64,000 nucleotides of DNA from sequence record NC_052663.1; one strand, 5' to 3'. The notes under the pieces are model-generated. The model worked only from the letters and a program-made list of their open reading frames with translations, did not search any database and was not told the origin of the DNA. Numbering within the stretch: position 1 is the first letter of the stretch; every line of letters starts with the position of its first letter. Positions 39,017-42,269 of the stretch are shown here, piece by piece. This stretch comes from Escherichia phage VEcB. The translations under genes were made by a program, and so were the position numbers.

Positions 39017-41791
39017 TTAGTTTACCAGTTTATTTATATCTGGTAAAAGATTTATTTCACCTAAAAAATCACCTTCACCTTCCTCTAACCAACTCTCATA
39101 TGCTTGTGCATGATTATAGTTACCATCAAAAGAATCTGCAACAAATTTTTCTACAGCTTTTCGAGATGTGCCAGCGCCAAATACACCAAGTTTAATACCA
39201 TTGATCGGTAAAGTGGTGCTTGTTGGTACTTTCTCTGTTGCAACACGGTTGATATCTATAATCTCCTGTACGGTTGTGTTCCATTGTAAGCATTTAACAC
39301 AACGGGTATGCGCTACATACAGTAGGTTTCGCTCTGCCTCTTCCAGTCCTACCCATTCACCAGTCTTTTTATCATAGTTGGAAGGAAAATCATTAGCAAC
39401 AATAACCTGATCCCACTCCAAACCTTTAGACTTGTGTGCTGTAGTAAGTGTGACTTTTGCTGTAGGAGAATTTCTGTGCGTTCTAAGTGTATGTGCTATG
39501 GTGTTCGCCTTACCAGAAACTACGATGTTTAACAAGCGTTTAGCATCTGGATCAGCCTCTGCACACTCAACAAATTCATCCCAGTCTGCGTAAGGTAATA
39601 CAGTTTCATGTTTTACTTTCTCAATATCTCCTCTCCGAAGAGCATTAACACTATCTACCATAGAGATAAAATCCCTGGTATCTACGTTAATAATAATTTC
39701 TTCCCCATCTGCAATACGATCCATTGCCTCCATAAGCAAGGTTAAATTCTTGCGAAAGATGATAGTGTAAGGTTTTGTATAGTCTACAACATCTGATTTG
39801 TAGCTACCTACTACAGTATCAAAGCCTTTACCAACCAAAGGATGACGCAAAGGTTCTTTATCGCTTAAAATCATATTGGCAATGTTTGCCACTTTGGGGC
39901 CAAAACGGAAGCAAGCAGTTAATGGAAGCTCTGCCCCATACTTAGCTGTTTCAATCATCATATTAGAGCTACCTCTAAATTGATAAATGCAGTTGTGGCT
40001 AAGAATTTCATTGCCAAAGAAGTTAGCAGTATCCTCTACTTCAATATCATAATAGATACCCTCACTATCTACAATGTCCACAATCTCTTCTGCCGTTACA
40101 GTATCACCATCTTTTACCAACACAGACATGCCTTTAAACAAACCCGCTGCCGGAATTAAGTTATATTTGGCACTGTTCACAGAGGACATGCATTCTTTTA
40201 AAGATGCAAACGGAACTATTTCAAGGATCTTTTGTGCAAAACTCAATGCTTCACGATAAGAATTGAAATATTTACGTACACGGTAACGACCTTCCAATTT
40301 AGCAGCACTTACGCTTACACCTGCTTTAATCAGTGAAGAATAGATCGGCATTTCACTTTCTGTCCACTCAAAACTAACTTGTGTTCCTTTACAACCTTGT
40401 GCTCGCAAAGTCACTGTTAGCATTTTTCTTTCATCTACTGCACAATTGATGCTGTGCCAGTGTGGATAAGCAAAATGATAATCTTTATCCTCTAAAAGTT
40501 TAAAACCATTTTGTCCGAATTGTTCAAAGATGTTATTGATCCTTTCTTGATTAATGCCGCGTGAACTTGCTTCAAATACACAAGTAGGAATGCCATATTG
40601 TAAACTGTATGCCATTTCTTTTTCCATAGCAGCTTCACGGTTTTCAACAATATCCAACACCCATAATTTCTGTGCTTTTTCAGAACGTGTACGTTGCCCC
40701 AGTTTAGAAAAACCTTCTTTATCATCGAATTTGTTAGTGATCCCTACTCGGAAACCTAAATCTTTCCTCCACATTAGGTATACCACCATCTGATCATCTT
40801 TCAGAACATAGGATGAAGCCCAAATACGATGGTTATGTGTCATATCTAAAGTTTTACCTGTGGCAGTAATAATATTCCTACCTTTTGTACGTGTAGATAA
40901 AGTCTTATTTGTTACTTTTCTAAATGTAATTTTACCATTAGAATAAGACTCTACCTTATCACCGATTTGTAGGTCTTTCATTGTAACCTGACCATTCTCG
41001 GTATTAAGTACCGTGTTTTCCGACACACATTGGAATTCATCGCCCACTACCACAATTTGTTTTGCAGATTTAGCATTTCGCAGAATAGACAAGAATGCAG
41101 GGTTAACATCCTGGAATTCATCACCAAAAATAATGTCATAACCAAGGTCAGCACCTGATAATTCAAACAATTTTACATAGGTGTCATGCGTCATCAAAGT
41201 ATCTGTGTTAGGATCGATGCGCTCTCGCCACAATTGTTTTGCATACTTAACCACTTCTGTAATTAGTTTGTGTTCGTTAATACCTTTTCTTTTAATATCT
41301 GCAAGATGTACACTAGGAAAATGTTTACGGCTGATAAAAGGATCATCCGAAAATTCAAACTTACCTACGGTTTGCTTGATCATTAAACCGATCATAGCAC
41401 GAGTTAAAAGTGTTTTACCTCGTTTATCAATAAGATTATTAATCTTAAATTTCTTTGCTATCTCGCTACCTGTACCTGCAACGTTAACATACTGTCCTTC
41501 TGGTCGTGACAGTTTTGCGCGTAAACGATGATCCAGGAATTGATAGCAAATAGAATGCAATGTACGGCATTCTACATTTAGTGGCATCTTACGTCGTGCT
41601 TCTTCTGCCATGCTTTTATTGAAAGCTAAGTAAAGAATGCGATCTTCTGTACTGTTAGCCAGCAAATAAAGTGTTGACGTTTTGCCTGATCCAGATTTAG
41701 CTTGGATAGTTAAAAAGCGATGGTCTGGAAAAGCCTCCTTAATAGCTGTTTGCTCTTCTGTTGGAGTGAAGCTCAACTCTTTCTTAGCCAT
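39017..41791 (-). CDS. SF1 (UvrD/PcrA-like) DNA helicase interrupted by an intein
   Basis: Motif I AKSGSGKT, motif II GDEFQD, motif III split as VVVGDEFQ / [intein] / CIYQFRGSS; start at MAKKELS with AGAGG RBS. Confidence 0.7.
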   Translation of the reverse strand: MAKKELSFTPTEEQTAIKEAFPDHRFLTIQAKSGSGKTSTLYLLANSTEDRILYLAFNKSMAEEARRKMPLNVECRTLHSICYQFLDHRLRAKLSRPEGQYVNVAGTGSEIAKKFKINNLIDKRGKTLLTRAMIGLMIKQTVGKFEFSDDPFISRKHFPSVHLADIKRKGINEHKLITEVVKYAKQLWRERIDPNTDTLMTHDTYVKLFELSGADLGYDIIFGDEFQDVNPAFLSILRNAKSAKQIVVVGDEFQCVSENTVLNTENGQVTMKDLQIGDKVESYSNGKITFRKVTNKTLSTRTKGRNIITATGKTLDMTHNHRIWASSYVLKDDQMVVYLMWRKDLGFRVGITNKFDDKEGFSKLGQRTRSEKAQKLWVLDIVENREAAMEKEMAYSLQYGIPTCVFEASSRGINQERINNIFEQFGQNGFKLLEDKDYHFAYPHWHSINCAVDERKMLTVTLRAQGCKGTQVSFEWTESEMPIYSSLIKAGVSVSAAKLEGRYRVRKYFNSYREALSFAQKILEIVPFASLKECMSSVNSAKYNLIPAAGLFKGMSVLVKDGDTVTAEEIVDIVDSEGIYYDIEVEDTANFFGNEILSHNCIYQFRGSSNMMIETAKYGAELPLTACFRFGPKVANIANMILSDKEPLRHPLVGKGFDTVVGSYKSDVVDYTKPYTIIFRKNLTLLMEAMDRIADGEEIIINVDTRDFISMVDSVNALRRGDIEKVKHETVLPYADWDEFVECAEADPDAKRLLNIVVSGKANTIAHTLRTHRNSPTAKVTLTTAHKSKGLEWDQVIVANDFPSNYDKKTGEWVGLEEAERNLLYVAHTRCVKCLQWNTTVQEIIDINRVATEKVPTSTTLPINGIKLGVFGAGTSRKAVEKFVADSFDGNYNHAQAYESWLEEGEGDFLGEINLLPDINKLVN
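39992..41029 (-). mobile_element. Intein (about 346 aa) in helicase motif III
   Basis: Begins with Cys (CVSENTVLNTENGQ), block B TLDMTHNHRIW, block F/G DIEVEDTANFFGNEILSHN followed by extein Cys; extein junction reconstitutes GDEFQ-CIYQFRG. Confidence 0.6.
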
Positions 41792-41792
41792 T

Positions 41793-42269
41793 TCAACCTC
41801 TCTTAATTTGTTTAACAAGCATAGGAACAAAATCTCGTTTTAAAATTTGTTCAATAATATGATCAGGTAGCTGTTGGAAATTATAATTAAAAGCTACTGT
41901 CTCACCTTTAGGTGTTTCTACCCGCACATATAACATGTTACGAAGTTTATCCACTTGTGCTGTATATTCTAAACCATGTAATTGATGCATTGCAAACATC
42001 AAATCATCAGTTTCAGTTTGGAATCTATCATTTGCTTGCATTAAGGATAAGGTAAAAGGTAGATTTTCCCTAAGAGCCACCTTCTTAGGAACTAGTGAAG
42101 GAAAATACTCACCAATAACTTCCTGTGTAAGCTGGATACACTCTTTTTCAAGTTGGTTTTGTTCCTTAAGTTCACAAACACTTTTTTGTAAAGTGTTAAC
42201 CTCTTTTTGCAAAGCTGCTAGTTGAGCACTTAACTTTCTTTTTTGATTACGACCAAAACGTTTAGACAT
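41793..42269 (-). CDS. Hypothetical coiled-coil protein
   Basis: ORF track. Confidence 0.35.
   Translation of the reverse strand: MSKRFGRNQKRKLSAQLAALQKEVNTLQKSVCELKEQNQLEKECIQLTQEVIGEYFPSLVPKKVALRENLPFTLSLMQANDRFQTETDDLMFAMHQLHGLEYTAQVDKLRNMLYVRVETPKGETVAFNYNFQQLPDHIIEQILKRDFVPMLVKQIKRG

Follow-up and report, generated by a model that had tools for sequence, protein, structure and literature searches.

The stretch of DNA analysed here (the window) comprises 64,000 nucleotides of Escherichia phage VEcB (NC_052663.1). On its minus strand lies a gene whose product is, from its sequence, a UvrD/Rep-type SF1 helicase of a phi92-like (Justusliebigvirus) coliphage, with an intein in motif III. The gene and its main parts are as follows.

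39017..41791, minus strand: helicase precursor gene, UvrD/Rep-type SF1, intein-carrying; ATG at 41791, 924 aa
41030..41791, minus strand: N-extein (precursor aa 1-254), with the first half of motif III, ...IVVVGDEFQ, at its end (from the translation)
39992..41029, minus strand: intein, 346 aa, precursor aa 255-600 (from splicing residues, profiles and a 1038-bp indel relative to phage outra)
39017..39991, minus strand: C-extein, precursor aa 601-924 plus stop, with CIYQFRG as the second half of motif III (from the translation and a UvrD_C match)

Taken mechanically, the open reading frame spans 39017..41830 and reaches a TTG at 41830 (937 aa); annotated records of the relatives PaulScherrer and outra start the helicase at an ATG matching 41791, giving 924 aa. 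The protein matches Pfam models PF00580 UvrD-helicase (45.2 bits), PF13361 UvrD_C (42 bits) and PF13245 AAA_19 (39.8 bits), all above cutoff, and PHROG 1967 'DNA helicase' with E=1.9e-162. Its translation contains GSGKTST, GDEFQD, GDEFQ/CIYQFRG and TAHKSKGLEWD as motifs I, II, III and VI, of which the Walker A sequence (GSGKTST) and motif II (GDEFQD) reside in the N-extein. Domains of the UvrD family, as detected by Pfam, flank the intein on both sides.

Splicing residues and boundaries of the intein

The intein occupies residues 268-613 of the 937-aa reading frame, or window positions 41029..39992 on the minus strand. A reading from sequence alone had placed it at 39992-41029, which proved exact to the base. 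That reading had also pointed to an initial Cys, a TxxH block B and a terminal HN followed by an extein Cys, and all of these occur in the translation. The element opens with CVSENTV (Cys1), carries block B as LDM-T64-H-N-H67-RIW, and closes with ...YYD328IEVEDTANFFGNEILS-H345-N346. The next codon, at 39989..39991, is the +1 Cys that opens the C-extein (CIYQFRG). Deleting the intein in silico yields VVVGDEFQCIYQFRG, a UvrD-type motif III, so the proposed restoration of that motif between GDEFQ and CIYQFRG was borne out. The splicing region is split between the two ends of the element.

40808..41029, minus strand: N-terminal Hint/splicing region, intein aa 1-74, blocks A and B
39992..40153, minus strand: C-terminal Hint/splicing region, intein aa 293-346, blocks F and G, ...D328...NFFGNEILSHN

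The intein HMM search suggested by the sequence-only reading gave a match above cutoff to NCBIfam intein_Cterm TIGR01443 (23.3 bits; cutoff 15.6), and scores just under cutoff for Pfam Intein_splicing (E=3.9e-8, 33.7 bits; cutoff 35.8), Pfam Hint (29.1 bits; cutoff 29.7) and NCBIfam intein_Nterm TIGR01445 (20.3 bits; cutoff 24.5). The N-terminal region is matched by Pfam Hint and Hint_2 over aa 1-73 and by TIGR01445, and is β-rich in the AlphaFold (AF2) model. The C-terminal region holds the TIGR01443 match and shows weak phmmer likeness to the C-termini of the DnaX and gp41-1 mini-inteins.

Phage outra, with a helicase approximately 98% identical, lacks exactly 1038 bp at this position and reads GDEYQ/SIYQFRG. 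Outra and others carry GDEYQSIYQFRG uninterrupted at motif III; at the DNA level the empty site is GTGGGTGACGAATATCAG joined to AGCATCTACCAGTTCCGTGG..., given in outra and EmilieFrey as GTGGGTGACGAATATCAG joined to AGCATCTACCAG. These alleles bear directly on whether the element could instead be an insertion domain native to this line of helicases and retained in the mature protein, an idea whose sole support is that some Hint profile scores lie slightly below curated cutoffs. The element has a complete set of splicing residues and a TIGR01443 score above cutoff, it interrupts motif III, which its exact removal restores, and homologous elements occur in unrelated hosts (ParB-methyltransferases) and at other helicase motifs. 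With exact-indel alleles present in near-identical phages, and no native insertion in helicases about 98% identical, we rejected this explanation, to which we attach next to no probability. Splicing residues, profile matches, motif III restoration and intein-less alleles together confirm, at the level of sequence, a genuine class-1 intein of the Hint superfamily.

The intein was already known, being annotated in GenBank for near-identical phages; the VEcB copy is therefore not a discovery, and the finding as originally stated adds nothing new. The same element occurs at the same position in PaulScherrer (MZ501100, bas60_0082), JohannJBalmer (MZ501084) and vB_EcoM_ZYD ('intein-containing UvrD'), with helicase gene DNA 98.8-98.9% identical to that of VEcB. 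GenBank records of the BASEL phages annotate a precursor and a mat_peptide 'intein', by a method described in PMC8594841. The intein feature in MZ501100 corresponds to 39989..41029, one codon longer, and takes in the +1 Cys. Neither these records nor the sentence on inteins in PMC8594841 mentions an endonuclease domain, homing or splicing.

Distribution, linked flanks and transfer

Of the collection's phage records from close relatives, 35-37 contain the intein and 21, all Justusliebigvirus-like, have an empty site; isolates named 'alia' occur in both states. Over the 1737 nt of the extein gene, the intein-plus allele differs from that of outra at 44 nucleotides, 26 of which fall within -27..+50 of the junction. 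They define two short tracts.

41030..41056, minus strand: upstream intein-linked flank haplotype, 9 substitutions in 27 nt relative to the intein-less allele
39941..39991, minus strand: downstream intein-linked flank haplotype, 17 substitutions in 51 nt relative to the intein-less allele

The downstream tract includes the change from Ser to Cys at +1, and no uninterrupted allele among the close relatives in the collection carries the intein-linked haplotype. In DNA comparison with Klebsiella phage KP2025, identity is 92-99% over most of the intein and 63-83% in the exteins; synonymous sites are saturated in the exteins, and dS is 0.11 in the intein. Because the exteins have diverged further than the intein, and substitutions relative to the empty allele cluster at the junctions, we read the pattern as a signature of homing. 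On these sequence comparisons, namely sporadic distribution, linked flanks and an intein less diverged than its host gene, the element is recently mobile, very probably by homing.

We also considered that the intein might now be mainly fixed and possibly regulatory, with conditional splicing controlling the helicase and homing lapsed in this phage group. Inteins do tend to gather in the ATPase motifs of proteins for replication and repair, a clustering that has been argued to be functional (PMC4760082), and the GC and GC3 of the VEcB intein match those of the host gene. Around a third of close relatives lack the intein, however, 'alia' isolates exist with and without it, and the element was recently exchanged with a Klebsiella phage despite much greater divergence between the helicases, all of which makes this explanation improbable. 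As to composition, GC is 0.369 in the intein and 0.377 in the window, and GC3 is the same as in the exteins; a compositional anomaly was considered and rejected, as both measures match the surroundings. Elsewhere in the genome, an intron in nrdD, also proposed by the sequence-only reading, is supported.

The family extends well beyond these phages. An exhaustive search of 1.84 billion representative proteins had 5,246 representative hits in all and, at E<=1e-30, at least 1,420 clusters (at 50% identity), far more than the word-indexed search, which recovered just 2 and then 8 members. Within the best 150 of the 1,420 strong cluster matches, 124 of 162 copies are inserted at the motif III site, GDxxQ/[S/C]; other homologous elements reside in ParB-methyltransferases or at different helicase motifs. 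When GTDB genomes were scanned for patterns of the long form, only two MAG loci emerged, both of them motif III insertions.

A conserved central domain

Between the two Hint regions lies a central domain of 218 aa, divided in the AF2 model into two parts.

40460..40807, minus strand: central subdomain 1, intein aa 75-190, β-β-α-β-α core, candidate GIY-YIG-like nuclease
40154..40459, minus strand: central subdomain 2, intein aa 191-292, β-β-α-β-β-α module

Most family members are roughly 275 aa long and have subdomain 1 only; subdomain 2 is limited to a 'CV...ILSHN' subfamily of approximately 340-350 aa. Protein identity to the VEcB central domain is 100% in PaulScherrer and ZYD and 97.0% in JohannJBalmer. 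Across the family, residues Y84, M86, R94, G96, R113, E117, W123 and E138 are conserved, these eight positions being 95-100% invariant over 171 copies (Y84 and G96 100%, R113 and R94 99%, E138 98%). The domain has a dN/dS of 0.10, and its AlphaFold model has a pLDDT of 85. Conservation, dN/dS and the confident fold model indicate that it is under constraint.

The sequence-only reading had judged the intein large enough to carry a homing endonuclease. Its size does allow an additional domain; by sequence that domain is neither LAGLIDADG nor HNH, and its nuclease nature is an inference. Pfam and NCBIfam searches gave no LAGLIDADG, HNH, GIY-YIG or other match (Pfam with 32 members), and the GIY-YIG model PF01541 or a related model matched none of the 32 members at E<=1. 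PHROG searches returned nothing consistent, sequence and profile searches of the PDB returned no match, and Foldseek against the PDB returned nothing at E<1e-3. Inside the intein no alternative-frame or antisense endonuclease gene was found: the reading frames of 61-79 aa present there have no family match and were rejected as nucleases. Nor did the genes neighbouring the helicase include a detectable free-standing homing endonuclease. By these searches the central domain belongs to no described family, and it probably has a DNA-cutting role.

Comparison of folds and conserved residues suggests, tentatively, a GIY-YIG-like reading of subdomain 1. In the AF2 model its secondary structure (E7-14, E18-24, H35-42, E47-54, H57-71; pLDDT mostly 85-98 there) would fit the GIY-YIG topology, with a β1-β2 hairpin, a helix, β3 and a helix. 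When viral proteins were compared by fold, the non-self matches that ranked highest were GIY-YIG endonucleases of phages, each of them weak. Residues Y84, G96, R113 and E138 follow the order expected of GIY-YIG enzymes, with an Arg (R94) at the 'YIG' Tyr, an equivalence taken from a non-significant alignment. In that alignment, made by hhalign between the 171-sequence profile and two GIY-YIG alignments, one of five sequences (seeds verified with Pfam GIY-YIG) and one of 29, the match is in register though non-significant, with a probability of 2-3% and P of 0.013-0.021; the reversed control gave a P of 0.59.

A mobile intein with a central domain of another kind has to be weighed against this reading. 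The domain could be a LAGLIDADG module, much diverged or decayed, or it could be without catalytic activity and serve in DNA binding or as a structural element, in which case the intein would have spread through ordinary recombination in co-infections or with a nuclease acting in trans. LAGLIDADG meganucleases rank first by Foldseek against the PDB (E 0.02-0.4, prob <=0.38), subdomain 2 of the long form shares the β-β-α-β-β-α topology of a LAGLIDADG half-domain, and inteins carry LAGLIDADG endonucleases far more often than any other type (10.1101/2025.01.02.630785); the GIY-YIG profile comparison, as given above, is non-significant. However, TM-scores to LAGLIDADG structures are only ~0.15-0.2, no LAGLIDADG helix precedes the first β-hairpin, and Pfam LAGLIDADG matches 0 of 32 members. 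Most members of the family, at ~275 aa with subdomain 1 alone, leave too little room for a double-motif LAGLIDADG enzyme. The explanation is further opposed by the conserved Tyr, Arg, Arg, Glu and Glu, which form a catalytic-looking set on the hairpin and two helices; in addition, the narrow tracts of co-conversion and the recency of transfer favour a site-specific break. We consider this explanation rather unlikely. That the central domain, throughout the UvrD motif III intein family, is a GIY-YIG-like nuclease or represents a seventh, undescribed homing-endonuclease fold is a bolder possibility, to which we give slightly less than even odds.

Proposed mechanism and comparison with known systems

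Overall, the locus very probably holds a class-1 splicing intein in motif III (VGDxxQ/[S/C]IYxFRG) that has spread by homing, the nuclease being most likely its own central domain. From the intact residues and established intein chemistry, splicing would begin with an N-S acyl shift at Cys1, helped by T64 and H67, followed by trans-thioesterification through attack by Cys+1. Cyclisation of N346, assisted by H345, would complete Hint-mediated excision, and ligation of the exteins would produce a 578-aa helicase with motif III intact. For homing, sequence data provide the pattern and the agent is deduced from it. In a co-infection, an endonuclease would cut the intein-less allele of the related phage, and repair would copy the intein together with ~30-50 bp of either flank. 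The enzyme that cuts is most likely the in-frame central domain, in which subdomain 1, with its predicted GIY-YIG-like fold, would supply a candidate active site of Y84, R94, R113, E117 and E138. We speculate that subdomain 2 may contribute DNA binding, which is a guess.

Intein-plus and intein-minus isolates with helicases ~98% identical, co-conversion tracts and transfer across genera make homing of a coliphage intein directly testable. The BASEL phages, grown on E. coli K-12, offer a natural test bed in PaulScherrer (intein-plus) and EmilieFrey (intein-minus). A 2024 paper still held that coliphages had yielded no reported inteins (PMC11162368). Apart from mobility, what stands out is a very widespread intein family with a strongly conserved central domain for which there is no family model. 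Should that domain prove GIY-YIG-like, it would be the first in-frame endonuclease of GIY-YIG type reported in inteins, and would lengthen the list of endonuclease types captured by inteins and make available compact site-specific nucleases of a new class.

Canonical homing inteins of the LAGLIDADG/HNH kind, such as PI-SceI, have the same arrangement of Hint-N, inserted domain and Hint-C, and their architecture and mobility are established knowledge. Like the VEcB intein they occur sporadically, move horizontally and show co-converted flanks; unlike theirs, the VEcB inserted domain has no match to LAGLIDADG or HNH profiles. A closer counterpart is the UvrD-helicase intein of Bacillus phages SPO1 (gp34.33) and CampHawk, which occupies the same insertion point (VGDDDQ/C...THN/SMYSFRGA) and is homologous in its Hint parts and subdomain 1 at ~24-30% identity. 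It differs in being ~275 aa long and of the 'CQPAG...' type, without subdomain 2, in having Ser at +1, and in residing in phages of a Gram-positive host. It has been published as an intein (PMC3868849), and the SPO1 homologue has been annotated as one since the SPO1 genome record.

GIY-YIG enzymes (I-TevI, I-BmoI and the Seg proteins) would share with the VEcB central domain a predicted three-stranded β-β-α-β-α core, with a Tyr in strand 1, an x-Gly in strand 2, an Arg in helix 1 and a Glu in the next helix. The VEcB domain departs from them in having Arg for the second Tyr and in showing no significant sequence or profile match. Two papers state that inteins lack GIY-YIG domains (PMC1564403, PMC2677866), and a survey from 2025 of the kinds of endonuclease in inteins does not include them (10.1101/2025.01.02.630785). 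Whereas GIY-YIG homing endonucleases are free-standing or intron-encoded, the VEcB domain lies in frame within its intein.

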